Below are positions 24,664 to 60,084 of a DNA stretch of 64,000 nt, piece by piece. The position numbers and the translations under genes were made by a program. The DNA is from a virus, in the UHGV virus genome UHGV-1378516; one strand, 5' to 3'. The notes below the pieces were generated by a model. That model saw only the letters and a list, made by a program, of their open reading frames with translations, made no database searches and was not told where the DNA came from. Positions within the stretch are counted from its first letter, which is position 1, and the number at the start of each line of letters is the position of its first letter.

Positions 24664-24933
24664 TTACTTCCTCGTTTTAAGAACTGCTAAGATTTCTTTA
24701 GAGTCTGGTAAGAACCATGTGTAGTGATTCTCTTTGATTTCTGGATGAGTGTCAACCTTTATTTTGCACTCTTTACCAACATGCTTAAGCTGTGCTGTGA
24801 CACCCTGCATAAAGATATGACACATCACATTATCCATAATGGTTGGTATAAAGTCAATTCGCATATAAGTTTCTTTTGGTCGCGGTAACAGTAAGTACCC
24901 TTCTACGTAAAAAGTATCTTCATTCTCTGTCAT
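24664..24933 (-). CDS. hypothetical protein (89 aa)
   Basis: ORF track. Confidence 0.45.
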   Translation of the reverse strand: MTENEDTFYVEGYLLLPRPKETYMRIDFIPTIMDNVMCHIFMQGVTAQLKHVGKECKIKVDTHPEIKENHYTWFLPDSKEILAVLKTRK

Positions 24934-25199
24934 TGCTGTTTATTTCCTAATAAAATCATATCAATAAGGTTATTAGCTTTGATTGTGCACTGGTAAAATC
25001 CATCACGATAGAACTCAAGGGCTGCTGCCACATCACTACCAGTATTGCCTTTGATAGTGAATCTTGAATCTTCTTGAGTGTACTTATCACTCTCACTTAC
25101 TTGGGAGTTTTTGAATGTACTGCTCACTTTGTTCGTTGAACACCCTGACATAATTATCAGTAACACAAACATTATAAAACTCTGGCTTAGTTTTTTCAT
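24930..25199 (-). CDS. o-spanin-like outer-membrane lipoprotein (Rz1-like), overlapping the i-spanin gene
   Basis: Signal peptide with lipobox LIIMSGC; gene starts inside the 3' end of 25093-25440 in another frame. Confidence 0.5.
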   Translation of the reverse strand: MKKLSQSFIMFVLLIIMSGCSTNKVSSTFKNSQVSESDKYTQEDSRFTIKGNTGSDVAAALEFYRDGFYQCTIKANNLIDMILLGNKQQ

Positions 25200-25440
25200 A
25201 TGTTAGTACCTCTTTTGTGTGCTTATTCTTAGCAAGCACATCTTTCAAATCATTTTTGTAATTGGTGCTCAGTGTAGCTAATCCTTCCTGATAAGCGTCT
25301 TTAGCTACACTTATCAGCTTCTCATTGTTTAGCTCAGTTTCAGCAACTTGGTAGTCTCTGTAAGAGTATCCTCCCCAGACACCTGCCCCAACTAAGAAAA
25401 CAATTATGAAAGTAGCTTGACAGAACTCTTTAAATGTCAT
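25093..25440 (-). CDS. i-spanin-like protein (Rz-like): N-terminal TM helix + periplasmic domain
   Basis: TM segment FIIVFLVGAGVWGGY followed by charged helical region; overlapped architecture with lipoprotein gene. Confidence 0.55.
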   Translation of the reverse strand: MTFKEFCQATFIIVFLVGAGVWGGYSYRDYQVAETELNNEKLISVAKDAYQEGLATLSTNYKNDLKDVLAKNKHTKEVLTYEKTKPEFYNVCVTDNYVRVFNEQSEQYIQKLPSK

Positions 25441-25972: not shown

Positions 25973-26664
25973 TGTTTAACTAACATGGTTTTAATGTGTG
26001 GAAGGATTCTGTTTACCTTCTGAACATTCTTCTCTGTATCTTCTATAAAGCATACTATATTAAAGTAAGGAAGAATGCAAGACTGAATCATCCTCACTTT
26101 CAAACTTTCTGCACTTATAGAGTTAGTTCCAAAACCACGCATAAAAAGCAAGTAATCATGCTCTATATTGTGCCTTAAAAACATCTCAGTAGGTATTCTC
26201 TGAGATTCACCTCTTGCTGTCAAGAGTCCAACTGCTGCATGATTTGCAATTGCATCAATAATGTTGAAAACATATGTTGGTTTTGCTCTTACAGAATCAA
26301 GAAGATTAGTGTACTGTGAGAATGACCCATCAGTCAATTCCGTTGAGCAATCTTCGTGATTAAAATTTGTAAGAACACCATCAATATCTGCTAAGATGAG
26401 GTTACCTTTTTCTACAAGGTCTTTATTGACTATCACTAAACTATCACGCCTTACACCTATAGCTTGTCCAGTCTCTTTGTCCACAACGTTCACAATGGGT
26501 TCTGATGTGTGGAACTCTTCAAGTGAACATACAACCTCTCTTGCAGTGTCTTCAAAATCTCTGCACTGTTCTGGAGTCCATACACAGGAATCAAGACCTA
26601 ACTCATGAGGATGCAAGTCATAAGCGTGGCACAGGACTTCATCAGACTTTCTTAATTTTTTCAT
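25969..26664 (-). CDS. HAD-superfamily phosphatase-like protein (possible nucleotidase)
   Basis: Motif I-like LILADIDGVLT and downstream GLLTAR / IEDTEKN elements. Confidence 0.4.
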   Translation of the reverse strand: MKKLRKSDEVLCHAYDLHPHELGLDSCVWTPEQCRDFEDTAREVVCSLEEFHTSEPIVNVVDKETGQAIGVRRDSLVIVNKDLVEKGNLILADIDGVLTNFNHEDCSTELTDGSFSQYTNLLDSVRAKPTYVFNIIDAIANHAAVGLLTARGESQRIPTEMFLRHNIEHDYLLFMRGFGTNSISAESLKVRMIQSCILPYFNIVCFIEDTEKNVQKVNRILPHIKTMLVKH

Positions 26665-27190
26665 GATTTACCTTAGAAATGTTTGTTGCAAATTCACATT
26701 GAGCGATAACTTTCATATTGTTATAGACATCTTGAGAGTATTTCTTAGCTTTAGGGATTTTGTACGAATACCCAGCATTATATGATGCTAAAACTTTTTG
26801 TAAAGTCTTCTTTGACTTTGGGTGACCATGTACCTTCGTCCAAAACTCAAGCTCTTTATGTGTTTCTTTTGCGGCATAGTCAAAATCTTTTAAGAGTTTC
26901 TTTTTAGCAACATTAGGACTAATTTTGTTACGCTTTACAACAGTCTTCAAGTGATTCTGGAAGATACCGTAGTCATGGGTCTTTTTATTTTCTACCTTCA
27001 GACCTAACTCTGACTCTTGTAAGGCTATAGCTGCTAGAGTGATACCCCAACCTTTACCCATGTTATTCTCACCATACTGGTAAGCTTTTAACATGTTCAC
27101 TTTTTGGCTAATTGATAGCTCTGGGCAGTCAACTGCATAAGATAAGTGTGCTGTAAACATTAAGCACAAACCTAGAATCAATTTCTTCAT
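26642..27190 (-). CDS. secreted lytic-transglycosylase-like (SLT domain) protein
   Basis: Cleavable-looking signal peptide MKKLILGLCLMFTAHLSYA; AIALQESELG...YGIFQ resembles SLT catalytic region. Confidence 0.45.
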   Translation of the reverse strand: MKKLILGLCLMFTAHLSYAVDCPELSISQKVNMLKAYQYGENNMGKGWGITLAAIALQESELGLKVENKKTHDYGIFQNHLKTVVKRNKISPNVAKKKLLKDFDYAAKETHKELEFWTKVHGHPKSKKTLQKVLASYNAGYSYKIPKAKKYSQDVYNNMKVIAQCEFATNISKVNHEKIKKV

Positions 27191-51156: not shown

Positions 51157-51957
51157 TTAGTGCAGTTGCTCAGCAGACTCTTTTTCAGCCATAGCTGAGA
51201 GTTGCTTCACAAAATCATCACCGAAGTTAATGCGTAGTTTCTCTTCAATGATGGAAGCACCAATGTTCACCAAAACATCATTGATTGCTTGCATACTGAC
51301 GCCACCAGTCATCTCTTCAATGAACTCAATACTCACACCCATCATCTGTGAAAGTTGTATTAGTGCAACGATATTCATCATCGTAGAGATAGCTGGAATC
51401 ATCAGTGCAACTTTCACCTGAAGAGGTTCTATATCAGCTACAGAGTCATTTTCAATAGCTTCTTCCAAAGACTCTTTAGTTTGCTGGATAATTTCTTTGA
51501 TTCGTGGGCTTAATTCTTCTACGCCCCAATCAAGTTTTTCATATCGTGAAAGTTTCTCTTCCATACGCTTCTCAAGAACAGCCATAACAGCACTTGTTGA
51601 TGAGATAAGCGTATCAATAATGAAATCAGTGTCCTTAGTCAGCAACAGCTCCTTATCTTCGTCTGACATCCTGATATAGTCATTTCTCTGCATCTCATAA
51701 AAAATGAACTCTGCAAGAGCATCAACACCAACCGCAATAGATGCCAGAGCAAGTGTTTTGTCGCAAAGCATCATGTTAACCTGTTCTGCAAAAGCATCGT
51801 TATCAGACTTGTCTTTAGGCAGATTGTAGCTTGCAGGCATAAACTGTTCTGTATAGTTGTTACCACGAAGAATCATAGCCATGCTTTCTACGGCATTGAT
51901 TAAAAATGCTTCGTCAATACCTTTTTCTTCAAGCATCTTTTCTACATCGATATTCAT
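51157..51957 (-). CDS. hypothetical acidic protein (266 aa)
   Basis: ORF track. Confidence 0.5.
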   Translation of the reverse strand: MNIDVEKMLEEKGIDEAFLINAVESMAMILRGNNYTEQFMPASYNLPKDKSDNDAFAEQVNMMLCDKTLALASIAVGVDALAEFIFYEMQRNDYIRMSDEDKELLLTKDTDFIIDTLISSTSAVMAVLEKRMEEKLSRYEKLDWGVEELSPRIKEIIQQTKESLEEAIENDSVADIEPLQVKVALMIPAISTMMNIVALIQLSQMMGVSIEFIEEMTGGVSMQAINDVLVNIGASIIEEKLRINFGDDFVKQLSAMAEKESAEQLH

Positions 51958-51958
51958 A

Positions 51959-52381
51959 TTATTTCTCTCTCAGTTGGTTAAGTTTCTTTCTAGAACATTT
52001 TAAGTTTTCAGATGAAGAAAAGTCAAGTGTCTTTTCAGAACGTGGATAGTAATGCCTATCCCAAGAAGTTTCAACATCGTTAATCAGTGATGCTAGATTA
52101 CACAGGTCTGTACCACTTTGCAACCTCTTTTTAAGAGAATCTAGTAAAGCAACTGTGTCTTTAGCTTTACGTCTCGCTGTAGCAACATCTTTCATATGCT
52201 CAAATACAGAGCATTTTAAGTCATCTTCATAGTCTTCTGATAACTCTATCTCATGTTGTATATCAACCATTCTCCTGTGATGGTGAGCATATTCCCGTTG
52301 AGCAGCAATGTCAAGTTCTTCCAACTTCTGCAAAGCTCTAACAAAGTCAGCTATGTCTGGGTGAACAAACATTTTCTGCAT
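51959..52381 (-). CDS. hypothetical protein (140 aa), first gene of long minus block
   Basis: ORF track. Confidence 0.5.
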   Translation of the reverse strand: MQKMFVHPDIADFVRALQKLEELDIAAQREYAHHHRRMVDIQHEIELSEDYEDDLKCSVFEHMKDVATARRKAKDTVALLDSLKKRLQSGTDLCNLASLINDVETSWDRHYYPRSEKTLDFSSSENLKCSRKKLNQLREK

Positions 52382-52570
52382 GTAAGCCTCTTTTAAGTAA
52401 CTATTAAGTTTTAATCTTTTATCTTAACGTATTCTATACGTTATACTTTAAAGCTTTTTAAAAGCTATTAAATAATCTTTTAAGAGTTTTAAAGTATCTG
52501 TATAGTTAAACTGTTAAGTAACCTTTTAAGTAAAAACCCACTTCGCAAAGATTAACACCTTGTCAAGTAC

Positions 52571-52600
52571 ATTGTCAACTTGCTTTTTATAATTTTTTGC
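52571..52600 (+). promoter_or_regulatory. promoter/operator-like element CCTTGTCAAGTACATTGTCAAC + TTATAAT upstream of DNA polymerase
   Basis: Direct TTGTCAA repeat; TATAAT-like hexamer 52590-52596; copy of 8249-8270 element. Confidence 0.4.
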
Positions 52601-52638
52601 AGTAATGTATGAGGTTAATGCTTTTAGAGGGAGTAAAA

Positions 52639-55338
52639 ATGGAAAACGTAGATTTTAAAAACTTACATTTAGTTGGTGATACAGAAACTGATGGTTTACT
52701 CCTTGAGTTCACTAAAGTTCACGTAATGGCTTTCGCAGACTACAAATCTGACGACGAAGAACCACCAGTATGGGTTTTTACTGATGAGCCTATTCTCGGT
52801 CACAAGTACACTAAGTACATCAAGGGTGGATTACGTGAAGGTATTGAGTTTGCGTTGAAGGCAAAACGACTTTGTATCCATAATGGTCTCGGTTATGACT
52901 GGTGGGTTTTCAATCACATTGCGCCGGATTTATGGAACTTTGATAATCCAAAATGTAAGCCGTGGAGTAATTTCTTTCAGGACTCTCTTATCCAGTCTCG
53001 TGTTCAGTGGATGGATAGACCAACTCCAAAGGGTTATAAAGGTGCTCATGGTTTGGCTGCATGGGGTGCTCGTGTTGGTGTTCGTAAACCAGAGATTGAA
53101 CATTGGGGTGTGTGGAATGCAGAAATCTTCACTCGTGTTGTAGAAGATATCCGTATTAACGCCAAAACTAAACGGGCACTTGATAACGAGTATCTCAAGC
53201 TTAAGAAGTGTGGTATAGACACTTATGAAACTTACATGCGAGCTAAAGAGACATCTTTCTGGATGAGCCAACAAGCTATCAATGGTTGGAAAGCTGATAA
53301 GGAGCTTATGGAGTTCCATGTAAAGGAACTTGACAAGTTGACTAATGAGCTTGCTTCAGAGGTTGAACCACACCTTCCTCCAACTATTAAGACCAAAGGT
53401 AAAGTCACTGGAGAAGAGTTTGCAAAAGCTTGGAATGAGTATGTTGAAACATTTGGTCATGCAGATGGACTGAAGAGAATTACCAAGTATCCTAAGACAA
53501 AGTATCGTCAACAGGTGCGTAACGGTGAGATGCAGACATACGAAATCAAGCCATTTGGTAAGCCAACTACAAAGATTTTTAACATTGAAAAGAGGAATTG
53601 CTATACACCAACCAACTCTGTAACTGGCGAAGAGTACAAGGAAGGATTTGTAGCAATGAAGGATGCTCGTGCAATTTGCAATGAGTTGAACGCAAAGATT
53701 GGTAAGAAATGCAAAGACTGGAAGCCAGTAAAAACAGTCAAAACTGTGAAGTACTATAACAGCCACGTTGTTAATCACTTTGAACTTGAGTCAAGTCGCT
53801 ACACAGGTTTGATTGATGCACCATATACACCAATTGAGTTTGAAGTTTCTCGTATGACTCAGGTAGCAGTTGTTAAAGACTACTTGAAATCAGTTGGTTG
53901 GATTCCAGATGACTGGAATTACAAAAAAGACTCAGATGGTCGCCCTGTCAAAGTTTGTCGTTTCAAAGACAATAAAAAGATGATTACAAAGCATCCTAAG
54001 TGGCAGGAAATGGTTGAGCGGTGTGGTTTGAGTTATGTTGAACATGAAGGTGTACAGTACATCGAGCATAACTGGTCTGTGAAGAAATACACAGATTTGC
54101 TTGAACCTTGCTTAATCCGTACTTCACCAAAACTTACTGAATCATCTTATGATACGATTGAAGGTGAGCTTGGACAGAAGATTGCTAAGTACTATACTTT
54201 GATGCACCGACGCAGAACTATTGAGAACTCAAAGGATGATGAAAAAGGTTGGTTGAACCAGATTCGTCCTGATGGTCGCCTTAGTGCTGGTGCAATGGTG
54301 TTTGGCACTTCAACTGGACGTATGACACAATATGGTATTGTAAACGTACCGTCTGGTGCTGCTGTCTATGGGGAACCAATGAGGGCAGTGTGGATTTGTG
54401 AAGAAGGTACTAACGTTGTCTCTGTAGACATGAACTCAGCCCAGCTAGTTCTCCTTTGTAACTTTATGGGTGACAAAGACTTCACCAAAGCGGTAACGCA
54501 AGGTAAAGAAGAGATTGAGTTTATTCGTCAAGAAGATGGACGCTATTACTGCAAACACTTTGATGAGTACCTCAACCCAGAGATTGATAAGTACCTTCGT
54601 TATGACTCTGAGAATGACCTGTACGTTGTCTATTCAGGGACTGATGCACATACACTGAACAGTATTTACTTTAGCTTGAATGATGAGCAGGATATTTTGA
54701 CTTGTCGAGCTACTCAGGATGAGAACCTTCTCCATGAGATTAGTAAGGGTCGTAAGAAAGCTAAGAATGGTATCTATGCACTGCTGTTCGGTGCAGGTGA
54801 TGAGAAGTTTGCTAAGACGATTAAAGCTGCAACTACTCAGGAAGGCGCACTAACTAAACAGACTTACTTTATTCGTTTGCCTAAAATTAAGAAGCTGCTA
54901 GATGACTTGGAAGCTGACTACAAAGCAACTAAAAAGGCACTTGAAGAGGTGTTTGGTAAGACTGCTGCAATCTCTAAAGGGGGTTTTGTAAAGGTTGCTG
55001 GAGCTTGGTTGTGGTGTAAATCTCCACACAAACTGTTGAACTATCTTTTGATGGGTTCAGAGGCTCAGATTCAAAATGAGGCAATTAACCTTGCTTGTCG
55101 TCGTATGATTGACGAAGGTTTGATGAAGTTGAATGGTCGTCAACCAGCTATTGGTGCTCGTTTGCTCTGCGCATATCACGATGAAACAAGTTGGGAATGT
55201 CCAGAAAGTATGACGGCAGAAGTGAAAGCAGTTACTGACTGGTATTATGGACAAGCTTCTAAAAACTTAGGTCTTAAGAAAGAAACACTTGTTACAGGTA
55301 CTGGTAAGGTTGGTAAAAGCTGGCTTGAGGTTCACTAA
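52639..55338 (+). CDS. DNA polymerase, family A, with 3'-5' exonuclease domain
   Basis: Start at ATG 52639 with GAGGGAG RBS; Exo I DTETDGL; motif A-like VSVDMNSAQLVLL; motif B-like KGRKKAKNGIYALLFGAG; motif C YHDE. Confidence 0.85.
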   Translation: MENVDFKNLHLVGDTETDGLLLEFTKVHVMAFADYKSDDEEPPVWVFTDEPILGHKYTKYIKGGLREGIEFALKAKRLCIHNGLGYDWWVFNHIAPDLWNFDNPKCKPWSNFFQDSLIQSRVQWMDRPTPKGYKGAHGLAAWGARVGVRKPEIEHWGVWNAEIFTRVVEDIRINAKTKRALDNEYLKLKKCGIDTYETYMRAKETSFWMSQQAINGWKADKELMEFHVKELDKLTNELASEVEPHLPPTIKTKGKVTGEEFAKAWNEYVETFGHADGLKRITKYPKTKYRQQVRNGEMQTYEIKPFGKPTTKIFNIEKRNCYTPTNSVTGEEYKEGFVAMKDARAICNELNAKIGKKCKDWKPVKTVKTVKYYNSHVVNHFELESSRYTGLIDAPYTPIEFEVSRMTQVAVVKDYLKSVGWIPDDWNYKKDSDGRPVKVCRFKDNKKMITKHPKWQEMVERCGLSYVEHEGVQYIEHNWSVKKYTDLLEPCLIRTSPKLTESSYDTIEGELGQKIAKYYTLMHRRRTIENSKDDEKGWLNQIRPDGRLSAGAMVFGTSTGRMTQYGIVNVPSGAAVYGEPMRAVWICEEGTNVVSVDMNSAQLVLLCNFMGDKDFTKAVTQGKEEIEFIRQEDGRYYCKHFDEYLNPEIDKYLRYDSENDLYVVYSGTDAHTLNSIYFSLNDEQDILTCRATQDENLLHEISKGRKKAKNGIYALLFGAGDEKFAKTIKAATTQEGALTKQTYFIRLPKIKKLLDDLEADYKATKKALEEVFGKTAAISKGGFVKVAGAWLWCKSPHKLLNYLLMGSEAQIQNEAINLACRRMIDEGLMKLNGRQPAIGARLLCAYHDETSWECPESMTAEVKAVTDWYYGQASKNLGLKKETLVTGTGKVGKSWLEVH

Positions 55339-55399
55339 TTAGTATTGACAAGGTGCTCATGGAAGAGTACCTTATACTGTATCTTATATAGGAGTGATT

Positions 55400-55609
55400 A
55401 TGAGCCACCGTGGAAGAACCCATGCAGCAATGATGAAAGGTGCTTCAAAGGAAACCATCAAGAATCGTAAGCAGAAGTTGTTTGAGAGAATGAACAGGCT
55501 AATTGATAATTCATCTCTTTCAGGTTCTGAGAAGGTTTTCTTGAAAGGTAATCTGAAAAGCATTGCACAAGAGCTTATTGACATTGAATATTGGAGACAT
55601 CAAAAATGA
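55400..55609 (+). CDS. hypothetical protein (69 aa)
   Basis: ATG with GGAGTG RBS. Confidence 0.4.
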   Translation: MSHRGRTHAAMMKGASKETIKNRKQKLFERMNRLIDNSSLSGSEKVFLKGNLKSIAQELIDIEYWRHQK

Positions 55610-55824
55610 CACTTGCAGACGTTATTCAGCAACTTCATGATAACTGCTACACTCCAGAGTTAATTCAGGAGATGTCCATTGTAGTCATGCCTAGCAAGTT
55701 CGTAAAAACCTTTAACAACGACGCTTTAAGGTCTACACACATCCTTATCGTTGACGGTAAGATTGCAAAAGACCATACTGGAGTACTCAAAGGTGAACGT
55801 ATTGATATTCTGGAGTTGCTATGA
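55606..55824 (+). CDS. hypothetical protein (72 aa)
   Basis: ATGA overlap; GGAGA RBS. Confidence 0.4.
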   Translation: MTLADVIQQLHDNCYTPELIQEMSIVVMPSKFVKTFNNDALRSTHILIVDGKIAKDHTGVLKGERIDILELL

Positions 55825-55956
55825 AGAAGATGTACAGTCTCTGGGGAAGGGTTGGTAAAGGTTTTGACTGGACACTTCTTCGTTCAAACGTTAAACGTAG
55901 TGAATTACCAGAACTCATCACTCACTATTTAAAAACATACAGAGAGGTAGACTATC

Positions 55957-56214
55957 GTGAACAATAAGGTTAAGAGTTGTGTGAAAGCAATGGTTGCACT
56001 TGGAGTAATTTTTCTGGCTGGCTGCAACCCATCTTATGAAAACAAAGATGCTTCTTACAGCCTCCCTCCAGAGATGCAAGACTGCAAAATCTACAAACTC
56101 AATGGTGATGCTATAAGCAGAGATATTGTTGTTGTCAGATGCCCAAACTCTCAAACAACAACATCTTATAGCTATGGTAAAAATGGTCAATCACATACCA
56201 CGGTTATTGAGTGA
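55957..56214 (+). CDS. small lipoprotein (GTG start)
   Basis: Signal peptide with lipobox FLAGC (MNNKVKSCVKAMVALGVIFLAGCNPS). Confidence 0.5.
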   Translation: MNNKVKSCVKAMVALGVIFLAGCNPSYENKDASYSLPPEMQDCKIYKLNGDAISRDIVVVRCPNSQTTTSYSYGKNGQSHTTVIE

Positions 56215-56224
56215 GGTTTTTACG

Positions 56225-56431
56225 ATGGAAGTATTAGTAAACTATATCTATCGTTATGATGTTGTTCACTCCACTACAACTGTAGCTCAACGCAATCCAA
56301 TAGTTCCACGAGAAGGTGAGCTTGTTCGCATTGATGGTTGGACTTACACTGTGGAAAGCATCATTCATAAGTTTGATGTTGTTGGTGATGTTCAAGTTAT
56401 CGACGTGGAAATTGGTGGTAAGAGAAAATGA
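56225..56431 (+). CDS. hypothetical protein (68 aa)
   Basis: ATG after GAGG RBS. Confidence 0.4.
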   Translation: MEVLVNYIYRYDVVHSTTTVAQRNPIVPREGELVRIDGWTYTVESIIHKFDVVGDVQVIDVEIGGKRK

Positions 56432-56587
56432 AATCTAAGCAAACAATGACAGATGCAATCTTCACAGTACACAGTTTCGAAAGGTTGCACATTAAAGATG
56501 TAAAAAATACACCAAAATGCGTTGTACATTTCATTAAAAGACGTAGTGAGAGGTCTTATATAAAATCTGACACAGGCGAGAGTACAA

Positions 56588-56806
56588 ATGGGTAAAGATA
56601 ATAAATTTCAGAACGCAGTTCTTACAGAAGATGGTGAGCTTGAAACATTCATTCTTCGTGTTGATGGTAAGTTATTCCGGTGTCGTTGTGGGTCAAACTG
56701 TTTCCATAAACCAGATAAAAACGACTTAGAGCTTTACGCATGTAATGCTTGCAACACTTGGTATCACTCAGAGGTTAAAAATGACAATTCTGTACAAACA
56801 AAATAA
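56588..56806 (+). CDS. small zinc-ribbon protein
   Basis: CRCGSNC ... CNACN Cys pairs. Confidence 0.45.
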   Translation: MGKDNKFQNAVLTEDGELETFILRVDGKLFRCRCGSNCFHKPDKNDLELYACNACNTWYHSEVKNDNSVQTK

Positions 56807-57884
56807 AGATGGTTCCTTCAACGTCTGGTCATGTGTTGCTGTAGGTGACAAAGTTATCACAACCTATGGTAAAGAAAATGGCAAGATGATGTTTGAAGAG
56901 TACACAGCAGAGCCTAAGAACATCGGTAAAAAGAATGAGCGTAATGCTGAACAGCAAGCTCTCTTTGAAGTTGCTGCTAAGTATAAAAAGCAAGTTGACC
57001 GTAAAGGTTATGCTTACACAAAAGAGTCTGCACAGAATACTGAGAAGGTAGGTGTACAGCTTGCTCATGATGCTGCAAAGGTTAGTCATGCAAAGTATCT
57101 GAAGTTCCCTGCTGATGCTCAACCAAAACTTGATGGTGTCCGTTGTAGAATTTCAAGACACTTGAGTATTGGCAGTGTATTTACAGCATATTCTCGTGAG
57201 AATACTGTTTACAAAATCCCTACTGAGCTAATACCTGACATTATGGCAATGTTAAGGCTCCACAAAGATGTTGATGAATTTGATGGAGAGATTTATGCTC
57301 ATGGGTGGGACTTAGAAGATATCGTCTCCATGATTAAAAATGAAGACAATCCTGACAGACACTTACTCAAGTTTTACTGGTATGATATCTGTGACAGTAC
57401 TAAGACGTGGCCTGAGCGTAGAGATATTATTGAGACTTCACCATTGAATGACTTCAGAGACGGCTGTAAAGTTGTTCCTGTTAAGTCTCGTCGTGTGAAC
57501 TCTTGGGAAGAGTTTGATGAAGCTCATGATAAGTGGGTTGAAGCTAAGTTTGAAGGTGCAATGTACCGTTCAATCTCTGAAGAATCTTTCTATGAGTGTG
57601 GTCACCGTTCATACTTCTTGATTAAGCACAAGAAGATGCACACTGAAGAGTTTAAAGTGACTGGTGTCAAGACTGATAAACGTGGCCACGGTAAGTTCGT
57701 TGTAGAGACTCTTCCTAACGTCTTTGTAGATGTCTCATGGAAGACTACTCATGAGAAGAAACAGTATCTTGCTGAGCATCCTGAAGAGTTTATCGGGAAG
57801 CCTTTAACGGTTCAGTTCCAGAAGATGACTCGTAAGGGTTCTTTACAGTTCCCTGTTGGTCTCGTTATACGAGATTATGAATAA
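56781..57884 (+). CDS. ATP-dependent DNA ligase
   Basis: Adenylation motif I KLDGVR (QPKLDGVRCRI); size and C-terminal OB-like region typical of T7-type ligases. Confidence 0.75.
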   Translation: MTILYKQNKDGSFNVWSCVAVGDKVITTYGKENGKMMFEEYTAEPKNIGKKNERNAEQQALFEVAAKYKKQVDRKGYAYTKESAQNTEKVGVQLAHDAAKVSHAKYLKFPADAQPKLDGVRCRISRHLSIGSVFTAYSRENTVYKIPTELIPDIMAMLRLHKDVDEFDGEIYAHGWDLEDIVSMIKNEDNPDRHLLKFYWYDICDSTKTWPERRDIIETSPLNDFRDGCKVVPVKSRRVNSWEEFDEAHDKWVEAKFEGAMYRSISEESFYECGHRSYFLIKHKKMHTEEFKVTGVKTDKRGHGKFVVETLPNVFVDVSWKTTHEKKQYLAEHPEEFIGKPLTVQFQKMTRKGSLQFPVGLVIRDYE

Positions 57885-57939
57885 AAGTTGTTGACATAGA
57901 AAATTTGGTGAGTATACTGAGCAGCATAAACCAACGGGT

Positions 57940-58260
57940 ACTCACCAGCATCACTTAAGAGTCTTTTAAAAGGGTTTTTAAGTGATGTTTGGTTAGGTAT
58001 GGTTGGGTGGTGTGAGGTCAGGTTTAGTTTGGTCTGGTAAGGTATGGGTAGTTAGTCTCAGCTACATTAAAATGAGACTTACCTTTTTAAAAGGTCTTTA
58101 GAGAGGGTCTTTTAATAAGGTCTGGTCGTGTCCGGTTCGGTAGTGTTGGGCTTGGCTTGGTCTGGTCTGGTAAGGGTGGATGGTAGTAGCCACGTTAAAA
58201 ATCTACCAAGTTTCTAAAGAGTCTTCTGTTGAGGGTTCTTTACAAACAACTTAACAATCA
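57940..58260. repeat. composite non-coding module A: palindrome CACTTAAGAG...TTAAGTGATG, GGT-rich tract, AAAAGGTCTTTAGAGAGGGTCTTTTAAT box
   Basis: Second copy at 59320-59640. Confidence 0.55.
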
Positions 58261-58265
58261 ACTAA

Positions 58266-58871
<606 letters not shown>

Positions 58872-58873
58872 TT

Positions 58874-59314
58874 ATGAATACAAAAGCATTAGCAGCAAAG
58901 TTCAGTTACGGTGACACTGTATCACATTCTGAGATGGACACCTTCTTAGGTATTGTGAAGCCAACTTATCAAGGTGACATTGTTAAGTACGAAGATGAAA
59001 TGAAGGCTTATGCACTTACACGACTAAACCGACTTGAGAAGTTTATTGAAAAGCTTCTTAAAGAAGAGAAGATTTATCTGGTTGCTTCAATGGGTGTTGG
59101 CTATCGTGTGGTTGAACCTAAACATCAAGCAACTATTGCAAAACGTAAAATGTCTGGTAAGATTGGTCGTGCTTTAAAGCAAGCCACTCAAGCGATTGAG
59201 AATGTGAACACTATGGCACTTAGCCATCAAGAACGCTCACGACTGATTGAACAGCAAAACCATTTAGCTGCTATGAAAGCTAACATTAACAAGCAACGTA
59301 GAAAACCTTTCTAA
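58874..59314 (+). CDS. hypothetical protein (146 aa)
   Basis: ORF track. Confidence 0.5.
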   Translation: MNTKALAAKFSYGDTVSHSEMDTFLGIVKPTYQGDIVKYEDEMKAYALTRLNRLEKFIEKLLKEEKIYLVASMGVGYRVVEPKHQATIAKRKMSGKIGRALKQATQAIENVNTMALSHQERSRLIEQQNHLAAMKANINKQRRKPF

Positions 59315-59325
59315 GTTGACTAGGT

Positions 59326-59349
59326 AGCCTCTTCGGAGGCTCCTTTTTA
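59326..59349 (+). terminator. rho-independent terminator
   Basis: Hairpin AGCCTCTTCGGAGGCT followed by CCTTTTTAAAA. Confidence 0.65.
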
Positions 59350-59640
59350 AAAGGTCTTTAAGAGGGTCTTTTAATGAGGTACGGCGCGGTTAGGTAAGGT
59401 CTGGTAGGGTAGGGTGAGGTTTGGTAAAGTGCGGGTAGTTAATCGGAGCTACATAAAAATTCGATTACATCACTTAAGAGTCTTCTAAGAGGATTTTTAA
59501 GTGATGCTCGGTCGGGTTTGGTAGGGTTTGGTAGGGTGTGGTTCGGTATGGTGTGGTTTGGTGTGGTATGGTATGGAAGGATGGCAGTAGCCTTATAAAA
59601 AATCTGCCAAATAAGCTATAAAATCTGTTGACAAGTCAGG
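59350..59640. repeat. composite non-coding module B (second copy of 57940-58260 module)
   Basis: GGT-rich tract GGTTTGGTAGGGTTTGGTAGGGTGTGGTTCGGTATGGTGTGG; palindrome CATCACTTAAGAG...TTAAGTGATG. Confidence 0.55.
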
Positions 59641-59672
59641 TGTTATAGCTTATTTTTATACTCAACGTAATA
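59636..59672 (+). promoter_or_regulatory. sigma70-like promoter candidate (TTGACA ... TATACT)
   Basis: TTGACA at 59636 with AT-rich -10-like hexamers downstream, upstream of secreted-protein gene. Confidence 0.4.
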
Positions 59673-59700
59673 CAAAATTTAATATAACTTTGAGGTCATT

Positions 59701-60084
59701 ATGAAAAAGATTTTATTAGCTGCTGCAATGGTTATGGCAATGAATTTACCAGTCAATGCAACAGAACTTCCAAATGTGGACTTATCAGGTGTTCCAGAAG
59801 ACACTTGCCAGATTGTAAAAGGTATTGCTCTAGCTAATGGTGAGTTACTTAAACCAATCTCTGAAGAGTCTTTGACAGAGATGACTGATAAGGTAACTGA
59901 CTATCAATATCGTGTTCTTGCAGAGTATTTCCTGCAATCTGCAAACATTAAAGAGAAACACCATGATGATATTGATGTACAGGCGATGCTCAACCACCGT
60001 ATCCAGTTTAAAGAAGATTTGATGCAAAAAGCTATGTATGGTGTTGAGTATTTCTTAGAAAACAGAAGCTGCACAGGTATTTGA
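59701..60084 (+). CDS. secreted/periplasmic hypothetical protein
   Basis: Signal peptide MKKILLAAAMVMAMNLPVNA; GAGG RBS. Confidence 0.5.
   Translation: MKKILLAAAMVMAMNLPVNATELPNVDLSGVPEDTCQIVKGIALANGELLKPISEESLTEMTDKVTDYQYRVLAEYFLQSANIKEKHHDDIDVQAMLNHRIQFKEDLMQKAMYGVEYFLENRSCTGI

Follow-up and report, generated by a model that had tools for sequence, protein, structure and literature searches.

A PHROG 902/DUF4884 family lipoprotein among the replication genes of a Felixounavirus: a possible envelope effector acting after adsorption

A small lipoprotein gene in the midst of phage replication genes raises the questions of whether the reading frame is genuine, what kind of protein it encodes, and what this protein might do in an infected cell. 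We addressed these questions for an 85-codon ORF in the virus genome UHGV-1378516, of which a stretch of 64 kb (the window) was analyzed. The window represents a Felixounavirus genome, and its region 52000-60000, which is matched by 263 phage records, is 97.9% identical to Escherichia phage fjerdesal.

A lipoprotein gene in the replication region

The 85-aa product with its GTG start, taken from the ORF list and the sequence, is MNNKVKSCVKAMVALGVIFLAGCNPSYENKDASYSLPPEMQDCKIYKLNGDAISRDIVVVRCPNSQTTTSYSYGKNGQSHTTVIE. The initial annotation described it as a lipoprotein of 85 residues with a classic lipobox, and we find that this description holds: the reading frame has exactly these boundaries (Table 1), and splitting the precursor at the L-A-G-C lipidation site yields the signal peptide MNNKVKSCVKAMVALGVIFLAG and the mature part CNPSYENKDASYSLPPEMQDCKIYKLNGDAISRDIVVVRCPNSQTTTSYSYGKNGQSHTTVIE. 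The precursor contains a basic n-region (K4, K6, and K10) followed by an 11-residue h-region (AMVALGVIFLA, within the accepted range of 7-22 residues), a lipobox conforming to the pattern [LVI][ASTVI][GAS]-C, and the lipobox Cys within residues ~15-35. The alternative GTG codon corresponds to the start position used in many relatives, and the mature protein is identical whichever of the two codons is used. When all six frames of the window were scanned for lipoboxes from every possible start, only two ORFs were returned, the one described here and the o-spanin of the phage. A signal peptide is seen in all family members, with the same layout in all 93 aligned sequences. The lipobox Cys is invariant in this 93-sequence alignment and present in 232 of 232 retrieved family members (228 were caught by a regular expression, and the remaining 4 were recognized by inspection), and the lipid attachment site model LPAM_1 from Pfam matches 20 of the 93.

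Table 1. Coordinates of the lipoprotein gene, its sequence features, and the genes it is compared with
Feature	Position	Strand	Basis or remark
Lipoprotein precursor gene	55957..56214	+	85 codons and TGA stop; ORF list, sequence, phrog_902 match, dN/dS
Shine-Dalgarno-like GAGAGG	55942..55947	+	9 nt 5' of the GTG start; read from sequence
Type II (lipoprotein) signal peptide, residues 1-22	55957..56022	+	Read from sequence
Alternative GTG start, 77-aa precursor	55981..55983	+	Near the ATG of most Felix O1-like relatives (MWKAVIALG...)
Lipobox L20-A21-G22-C23	56014..56025	+	C23 invariant in three family alignments
C23, predicted lipid-modified first mature residue	56023-56025	+	Lipobox position, invariance
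Mature lipoprotein, 63 aa	56023..56211	+	Alignments, AF2 models
Cys43 (mature Cys21), first of the Cys pair	56083..56085	+	Invariant in two family alignments
Cys62 (mature Cys40) of the C-P-N motif, second of the Cys pair	56140..56142	+	Invariant in two family alignments
Family-A DNA polymerase	52609..55338		Named from closest annotated record
DNA ligase	56745..57884		Named from closest annotated record
i-spanin	25093..25440	-	phrog_1152, E=8e-42
o-spanin lipoprotein ORF	24930..25199	-	Lipobox scan; overlaps the i-spanin

We considered whether the frame could be non-functional, either as a chance ORF or as a mis-called frame over a real gene on the other strand. The opposite strand does contain an ORF of 90 aa (55918..56190, -), and the closest GenBank record, phage fjerdesal, carries no annotation of the lipoprotein gene. 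In 21 distinct Felix O1-like alleles, however, dN/dS is 0.075 in the lipoprotein frame (dS 0.87) versus 0.20-2.3 in the five other frames; as all three reverse frames are among these, the antisense ORF is covered. The lipoprotein gene is under strong purifying selection in Felix O1-like phages. Moreover, hundreds of phages from other families have homologs at 25-50% sequence identity that retain the signal peptide, lipobox Cys, and two additional Cys. The frame-specific dN/dS and the size of the homologous family refute a chance or mis-called ORF, to which we assign a negligible probability. The likeliest reason for the gap in the fjerdesal record is that the start of the next gene, fjerdesal_94, was mis-called, the TTG start used there making it overlap the lipoprotein gene. 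In the window, the next gene begins 10 nt past the lipoprotein stop, with an ATG at 56225 preceded by GAGG. By sequence criteria the gene is thus very probably real and encodes an exported lipoprotein of the PHROG 902/DUF4884 family. PHROG 902 is already catalogued as an uncharacterized family; the gene is one more member and holds nothing surprising to a phage biologist.

The gene had also been placed among replication genes and downstream of DNA polymerase, which the map confirms. The co-directional order is DNA polymerase, three small ORFs, the lipoprotein gene, three small ORFs, and DNA ligase. All six immediate neighbors encode small proteins that belong to PHROGs of unknown function, and the surrounding 35 kb contain rIIA/rIIB, NAMPT, PRPP synthase, NrdD, NrdAB, primase-helicase, dNMP kinase, DHFR, and thymidylate synthase genes. 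The start of the lipoprotein gene overlaps the stop of an upstream 48-codon ORF by 11 nt, and this overlap, together with the 10-nt gap at the 3' end, points to a tightly packed operon. Because of this packing, the gene is probably co-transcribed with the replication genes. A promoter scan performed at chance level (22 sites found versus 21.4 expected), with its best promoter-like site located after the ligase gene, and the only terminator-like site on the + strand in this stretch, at 59326, comes from a scan no better than chance. A literature search found no Felix O1-type transcriptome, and the timing of expression considered below is deduced from gene position alone.

A conserved mini-domain in unrelated virulent phages

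The product matches phrog_902 (unknown function) over residues 2-83 with E=2.9e-18. Precomputed tables label nearly all relatives as Pfam PF16225, that is DUF4884; unlike this label, our hmmscan against a copy of Pfam-A returned no PF16225 match for the query or for 93 members. A profile search found 98 relatives, and a family HMM built here finds the gene in 45 phage loci (E 1e-8 to 1e-33). Searching 1.84 billion representatives with a profile, we obtained, as clusters at 50% identity, 1,231 with E<=1e-3 and 686 with E<=1e-10, and all of them consist of small proteins. Ten divergent representatives that we sampled were metagenomic only. By tblastn, the family is present in 588-607 of 50,697 phage records.

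The carriers are virulent phages from five or more unrelated groups, and the gene always resides among small early or accessory genes. They comprise Felixounaviruses, including Felix O1 (FO1a) with gp90; rV5-like Vequintavirinae of Acinetobacter, Pantoea, Cronobacter, Pectobacterium, and Klebsiella; T4-like Straboviridae of Aeromonas and Acinetobacter, with T4 itself lacking a member; T5-like Demerecviridae of Vibrio, which carry the gene between those for an origin-binding protein and ligase; and jumbo phages (the 121Q group, Serratia BF, and phages of Erwinia and Yersinia). Named members are CPT_Moogle40 of Citrobacter phage Moogle, gp175 of coliphage 121Q, AHP1_451 of Aeromonas phage Ahp1, and p0056 of Vibrio phage 234P1, and the 'Lipoprotein' of Aeromonas phage Aeh1 is a more distant match. 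None of the classical model phages was found to have a family member. Judged by sequence searches, bacterial genomes, plasmids, and E. coli prophages are almost free of the family. A degenerate pattern for L-Y-V-V-R-C-P-N-S-x-T located a single locus (Hylemonella) in 185,579 genomes, one per species, and one Paraburkholderia genome has a family copy in an island adjoining Band_7 and RdgC genes. Similar DNA is absent from all 5,426 complete E. coli genomes. Plasmids gave three weak matches only, and the one inspected is a degenerate copy with its C-terminal half replaced. Among 45 loci from 20 lineages, no ORF family within 3.5 kb is common to more than 2-3 lineages or positionally linked to the gene; the sole linkage seen, with Band_7/RdgC in beta-proteobacterial contigs, is lineage-specific.

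AF2 models of the mature part predict a polar tether of ~12 residues, CNPSYENKDASY, followed by a five-stranded beta domain of ~45 residues. Two motifs are conserved, Y-x-LP-x-E-(L/M)-x-D-C-K-I-Y and (L)-Y-V-V-(R/Y)-C-P-N-S-x-T-(S/T)-T...G-K, each of which contributes one residue to the Cys pair. The spacing between these residues is 17-20 in 217 of the 227 members that have at least two further Cys, and 199 of 232 retrieved members have exactly two further Cys at this spacing. In the models, the conserved Cys flank strands beta2 (residues 22-27) and beta3 (35-39), and a disulfide between them would staple the base of this hairpin. Within the Felix lineage, the sequence varies most in the hairpin loop (mature residues 27-33). 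Mature length in the family is ~55-70 aa. In longer members the only additions are tails of low complexity or helical character, many of which end in (V/I)-D-G-(V/K)-(T/E)-Y, and there is no informative domain fusion. Mean pLDDT is 65.5 and 68.9 for models calculated from 93- and 150-row alignments, respectively, with values of 76-79 over the first 40 mature residues and a poorly defined C-terminal hairpin. A sequence profile search of the PDB returned nothing at E<=10, a Foldseek search against the PDB gave no match, and structure matches in BFVD are confined to uncharacterized phage proteins, mostly named 'Lipoprotein'; as the models are of only moderate confidence, little weight can be given to the lack of fold matches. 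None of the conserved residues looks catalytic, which makes a binding role the natural reading.

The mature N terminus C-N-P-S-Y is invariant in 22 Felix-like copies. Its +2 residue, Asn, carries no Lol-avoidance (inner-membrane retention) signal, and Lol-dependent delivery to the outer membrane is therefore predicted for this phage. The E. coli outer-membrane lipoprotein NlpE also has Asn at +2. Across 232 members the +2 residue is Asp in 35% and Glu in 18%, with Ser, Asn, Thr, or Gly in most of the rest; outside the Felix O1-like subgroup, the majority of members begin their mature part with C-D or C-E. Members with Asp+2, which are found in the coliphage 121Q group and in Serratia, Pantoea, and Aeromonas phages, are predicted to be retained at the inner membrane. 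Either the membrane of anchorage is unimportant, or the target differs by lineage.

Comparison with receptor-blocking, lysis, and plasmid-exclusion lipoproteins

T5 Llp, T1/phi80 Cor, and Rtp45, from virulent and temperate siphophages, are small (~6-7 kDa mature), periplasm-facing lipoproteins that are made during infection and contain an intramolecular disulfide; for the protein studied here, too, sorting to the outer membrane is predicted (PMC9586334, PMC12685063). Were our protein an outer-membrane lipoprotein of this type, it would bind the periplasmic face of the receptor used by its own phage and inactivate it. Such an activity would block further adsorption and prevent the loss of progeny on cell debris. 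Consistent with it, our protein is a small lipoprotein with an internal Cys pair, is made by a virulent phage, and has a +2 Asn that predicts outer-membrane sorting, as for Llp. In addition, full-length hhalign against T5 Llp (the sequence used was verified to be 100% identical to X75922) reports a probability of 79%. The alignment, which covers the signal peptide, the lipobox, and a short C-x-x-Y-x-M match, owes this value to the signal peptide: when only the mature parts are aligned, the score is 12 (probability 0.5%, E=0.11), a value that 30 of 300 shuffled Llp sequences also reach. We thus detect no homology between the mature domains of Llp or Cor and that of our protein, and a search for fold similarity to the solved Llp or Rtp45 found none. 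The Llp disulfide joins the termini of the protein (Cys11-Cys58; PMC9586334), whereas the Cys pair here is 19 residues apart and predicted to lie at the base of a hairpin.

The position of the gene also differs from that of receptor-inactivating genes. T5 llp adjoins the receptor-binding gene oad/pb5 in back-to-back (divergent) orientation, and in small siphoviruses the exclusion genes share the locus of the receptor-binding protein (PMC11990801). In contrast, our gene lies between polymerase and ligase, >40 kb from the only tail-type gene identified in the window; the nearest 'minor tail protein' label (51157..51957, -) is ~4 kb off, on the opposite strand, and without Pfam support. The receptors of the Llp, Cor, and Rtp45 phages are FhuA or LptD, whereas Felixounavirus isolates depend on the LPS core oligosaccharide rather than on an outer-membrane protein (PMC13196588). 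Furthermore, the family is shared by phages whose hosts are Vibrio, Acinetobacter, Aeromonas, Serratia, and E. coli and which cannot have a single receptor in common, and the predicted inner-membrane retention of the Asp+2 members does not fit a protein of the outer membrane. The proposal of the initial annotation that the lipoprotein blocks the phage receptor is disfavored by these findings, and we judge it unlikely that the protein inactivates a receptor.

Like our protein, o-spanins of the lambda Rz1 type are small outer-membrane lipoproteins from phages of Gram-negative hosts. The lipoprotein could accordingly be lysis-related, either as a second o-spanin-like component or by regulating lysis timing or lysis inhibition. 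Homologs of rIIA and rIIB are present in the phage, and lysis genes are scattered in Felix O1-like genomes (PMC4319497). Yet a complete, overlapped spanin pair is already present at 24930..25440 (-). The gene for an o-spanin, a protein that acts at lysis, lies inside, overlaps, or borders an i-spanin gene; the lipoprotein gene has no such arrangement with a gene for a membrane-anchored partner, be it nested, overlapping, or neighboring. Its mature part has just 4 Pro in 63 residues and a predicted folded beta domain, whereas lambda Rz1 is Pro-rich. The PHROG scan (E<=10) lists no lysis family, and its place in the replication operon makes it likely that the gene is expressed long before lysis. 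We reject an o-spanin identity, as there is no i-spanin partner, no Pro-rich sequence, and no spanin profile match, and consider any lysis role very unlikely.

Weak matches to Zn_ribbon_InsA, Myticin, Lysis_col, LptM, TrbK, and EexN were rejected because they are sub-threshold. We attribute the first three to Cys-containing or lipobox segments; the LptM, TrbK, and EexN matches are confined to the signal peptide and tether. An identity as a TrbK/EexN plasmid entry-exclusion lipoprotein was likewise discarded, since the NCBIfam scores (TrbK, 14.9 bits versus a cut-off of 23; EexN, 13.6 versus 33) were obtained with two relatives and no match was obtained with the query.

Possible functions at the cell envelope

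The precursor would be exported by Sec, lipidated by Lgt, cleaved by LspA, and acylated by Lnt, and in the periplasm the Cys pair would become oxidized and staple the beta2-beta3 hairpin. Its genomic position suggests that the lipoprotein is made alongside the replication enzymes, well before lysis. The mature domain seems hardly large enough for an enzyme, and Cys, Pro, Gly, and Lys are its only invariant residues, so that it most likely is a stoichiometric binder, with a conserved periplasmic or envelope component of the host as the presumed target. In the absence of a conserved neighbor across 20 lineages the protein probably acts alone, and because its core motifs are kept from Vibrio to Burkholderia phages, the target is probably shared by the hosts and not a lineage-specific receptor or phage partner. 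The infected cell might in this way be protected after adsorption, a second phage being hindered in penetrating the cell wall or in transferring its genome. Arguing by analogy, we tentatively favor a small periplasmic binder of a conserved envelope component that possibly blocks entry after adsorption. The outcome would functionally resemble T4 Imm/Spackle or Gram-positive Ltp and not receptor inactivation by Llp or Cor.

The large virulent phage T4 expresses the envelope proteins Imm and Spackle (Sp) early in infection. Their action follows adsorption, does not depend on the receptor, and blocks either the entry of the genome of a superinfecting phage or its tail lysozyme. Neither is a lipoprotein: Imm is an integral membrane protein, whereas Sp is secreted and helical. 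We judge them the most compatible functional model. There is no sequence relationship, as the PHROG scan of our protein gave only phrog_902 and unnamed families. Ltp from the Streptococcus thermophilus phage TP-J34 is a helical repeat protein that blocks genome injection. It is a lipoprotein located on the outer face of the cytoplasmic membrane, where it takes part in superinfection exclusion (PMC3952083), and provides a precedent for the predicted inner-membrane (Asp+2) members of the family. Ltp differs in coming from a temperate phage of a Gram-positive host, and we detect no homology to it.

Virulent phages do make envelope proteins that exclude secondary infection (PMC9586334, PMC12685063, PMC12373910), among them T4 Imm, which blocks DNA entry (PMC12373910). 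For our protein, superinfection exclusion as proposed in the initial annotation is neither supported nor refuted and has analogy as its sole basis; the block of DNA entry suggested there is, on the same analogy, possible. Against exclusion, the protein has no homology to any protein of known function, and searches of PHROGs, Pfam, NCBIfam, PADLOC, and the PDB gave no match to any characterized exclusion protein. A variable +2 residue would also be odd for a protein that needs one defined place. We found no functional or experimental study of the family in the literature. Small phage lipoproteins can serve other roles, such as lysis control, host takeover, and counter-defense.

A role in host takeover or counter-defense has to be weighed in particular. 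Here, the periplasmic binder would inhibit or redirect a conserved envelope enzyme or machine, or an envelope-associated defense or stress sensor, to the benefit of the infecting phage itself and not for the exclusion of others. Candidate targets would be peptidoglycan remodeling enzymes, Tol-Pal, and Lpt, Bam, or Lol components. The gene shares its region with early/middle host-takeover and nucleotide-metabolism genes and stands alone without a phage partner, and its conservation over phages that infect many different Proteobacteria favors a host target that is itself conserved. A target that is soluble or spans the periplasm would make the variable sorting residue less puzzling. On the other hand, we found no match in PADLOC or among anti-defense families, and on present evidence a takeover role is indistinguishable from exclusion. 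We consider it conceivable.

Ranking these possibilities, we place protection of the cell after adsorption first, with takeover or counter-defense nearly as likely, while receptor masking and a role in lysis are less likely; the rest falls to roles not listed here. More generally, the lipoprotein may, somewhat speculatively, be a receptor-independent envelope effector common to unrelated virulent phages, in which a membrane-tethered mini-domain binds one conserved host component. The disulfide-stapled domain could then act from either membrane and would close the cell to later genomes or re-program its envelope.

If true, this would define a general way for phages of Gram-negative hosts to exclude others after adsorption, different from that of Llp/Cor, Imm, Sp, and SieA. 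It would point to a conserved envelope target on which phages from Vibrio to Burkholderia have converged, and provide a function for >1,200 sequence clusters now annotated as 'hypothetical protein' or 'lipoprotein'. With its widespread family, the gene is a well-founded candidate for a simple and cheap wet-lab test. Felix O1-like, rV5-like, T5-like, and jumbo phages have all been used or proposed for therapy and biocontrol, and a lipoprotein that blocks secondary infection or remodels the envelope would bear on the interference between phages within therapeutic cocktails.

N terminus and sorting residue of the lipoprotein family

Comparison of the family members in alignments A1 and A2 revealed that Felix O1-like phages encode the same mature lipoprotein behind two versions of its signal peptide. 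The first version (MNNKVKSCVKAM...) uses a GTG start as in the window and is represented by cluster P0001 (340 member sequences). The second version (MWKAVIALG...) starts at an ATG located 7 codons further in. Read from these alignments, the lipoprotein start codon is shifted between Felix O1-like sublineages. The residue following the lipobox cysteine (position +2) varies sharply by lineage within this small family: it is an invariant asparagine in Felix O1-like phages, an aspartate, which predicts inner-membrane retention, in the 121Q-type, Serratia BF, Pantoea, and Aeromonas members, and a glutamate in Vibrio T5-like members. As the +2 residue differs between lineages, homologous lipoproteins of the DUF4884/PHROG 902 family are predicted to be sorted to opposite membranes.

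Almost every family member carries the precomputed Pfam label PF16225 (DUF4884), but hmmscan returned 0 matches to PF16225 when all 93 aligned members (A2) were searched against the available Pfam-A copy. The precomputed labels and the Pfam-A search conflict over this family.

Family copies in a beta-proteobacterial lineage and on a plasmid

In a beta-proteobacterial lineage, the DUF4884 gene is found directly downstream of a Band_7/SPFH gene, with rdgC nearby (one Paraburkholderia genome and two metagenome contigs). This linkage is the sole recurring DUF4884 neighborhood that we found, and it is confined to that lineage. Another copy is located in a phage-like region of the 113-kb Acinetobacter baumannii plasmid NZ_CP062920. 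Its signal peptide, lipobox, and I-L-P-P-D-L-K-D-C-R-I-Y half are all intact, and V-V-R-C-P-N is missing from the unrelated C-terminal half. The plasmid copy may represent a gene that has decayed or recombined.

Positions of features discussed in the text (window coordinates unless a locus is named)
Feature	Position	Strand	Assignment
Signal peptide of the lipoprotein	55957..56022	+	
Family members, lineages varying at +2	L004 4007..4258; L005 2989..3231; L002 3989..4228		
Band_7/SPFH and DUF4884 neighborhood	L009 7087..8390; L048 3600..4793; L049 724..1917		
Plasmid NZ_CP062920 copy	L055 3995..4213		
fjerdesal_94 as deposited	L001 7129..7431; window 56126..56431	+	
72-aa ORF, C-x-C...C-x-x-C (CRCGSNC...CNAC)	56588..56806	+	phrog_5768 only, unknown function
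127-aa exported-looking protein	59701..60084	+	phrog_4332, unknown function
266-aa protein of the replication module	51157..51957	-	"minor tail protein" (phrog_4251, fjerdesal annotation)
Spanin pair, overlapped architecture	24930..25440	-	phrog_1152 and lipobox ORF
i-spanin, N-terminal TMD	25093..25440	-	phrog_1152, "Rz-like spanin" (E = 8e-42)
89-aa spanin lipoprotein ORF, lipobox M-S-G-C	24930..25199	-	weak spanin PHROG match (8e-5)
182-aa protein, Sec-type signal peptide	26642..27190	-	phrog_600

Gene annotation in the replication region

The lipoprotein has no CDS in the closest GenBank record, that of Escherichia phage fjerdesal. The next gene downstream, annotated as fjerdesal_94, is instead lengthened there to begin at a TTG, and in this form overlaps the lipoprotein gene by 89 nt. 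This deposited start is probably wrong, because reading the gene from an ATG at 56225, which is preceded by a GAGG site, yields a 68-aa product that aligns with phrog_4427 over the full length. The counterpart of the 72-aa ORF, fjerdesal_96, bears the label "DNA ligase," which is probably a carry-over error; the genuine ligase gene begins within this ORF, and the two share 62 nt. Further along, ∼3.5 kb downstream of the lipoprotein, starts the gene for the exported-looking protein (N terminus MKKILLAAAMVMAMNLPVNATE); a hairpin resembling a terminator (59326) and a site resembling a promoter (59628) precede it. The "minor tail protein" label of the 266-aa protein looks unverified, and this protein has no Pfam match.

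Spanins and a candidate muralytic protein

The 3' end of the i-spanin gene contains the start of the spanin lipoprotein ORF, and the pair lies distant from any recognizable lysis cassette. The gene for the 182-aa protein adjoins rIIB and lies two genes upstream of the spanin pair. This protein shows a sub-threshold match to the SLT lytic transglycosylase domain (E = 1.2e-3, 18.8 bits versus a cut-off of 21.3) and may represent a secreted muralytic protein.
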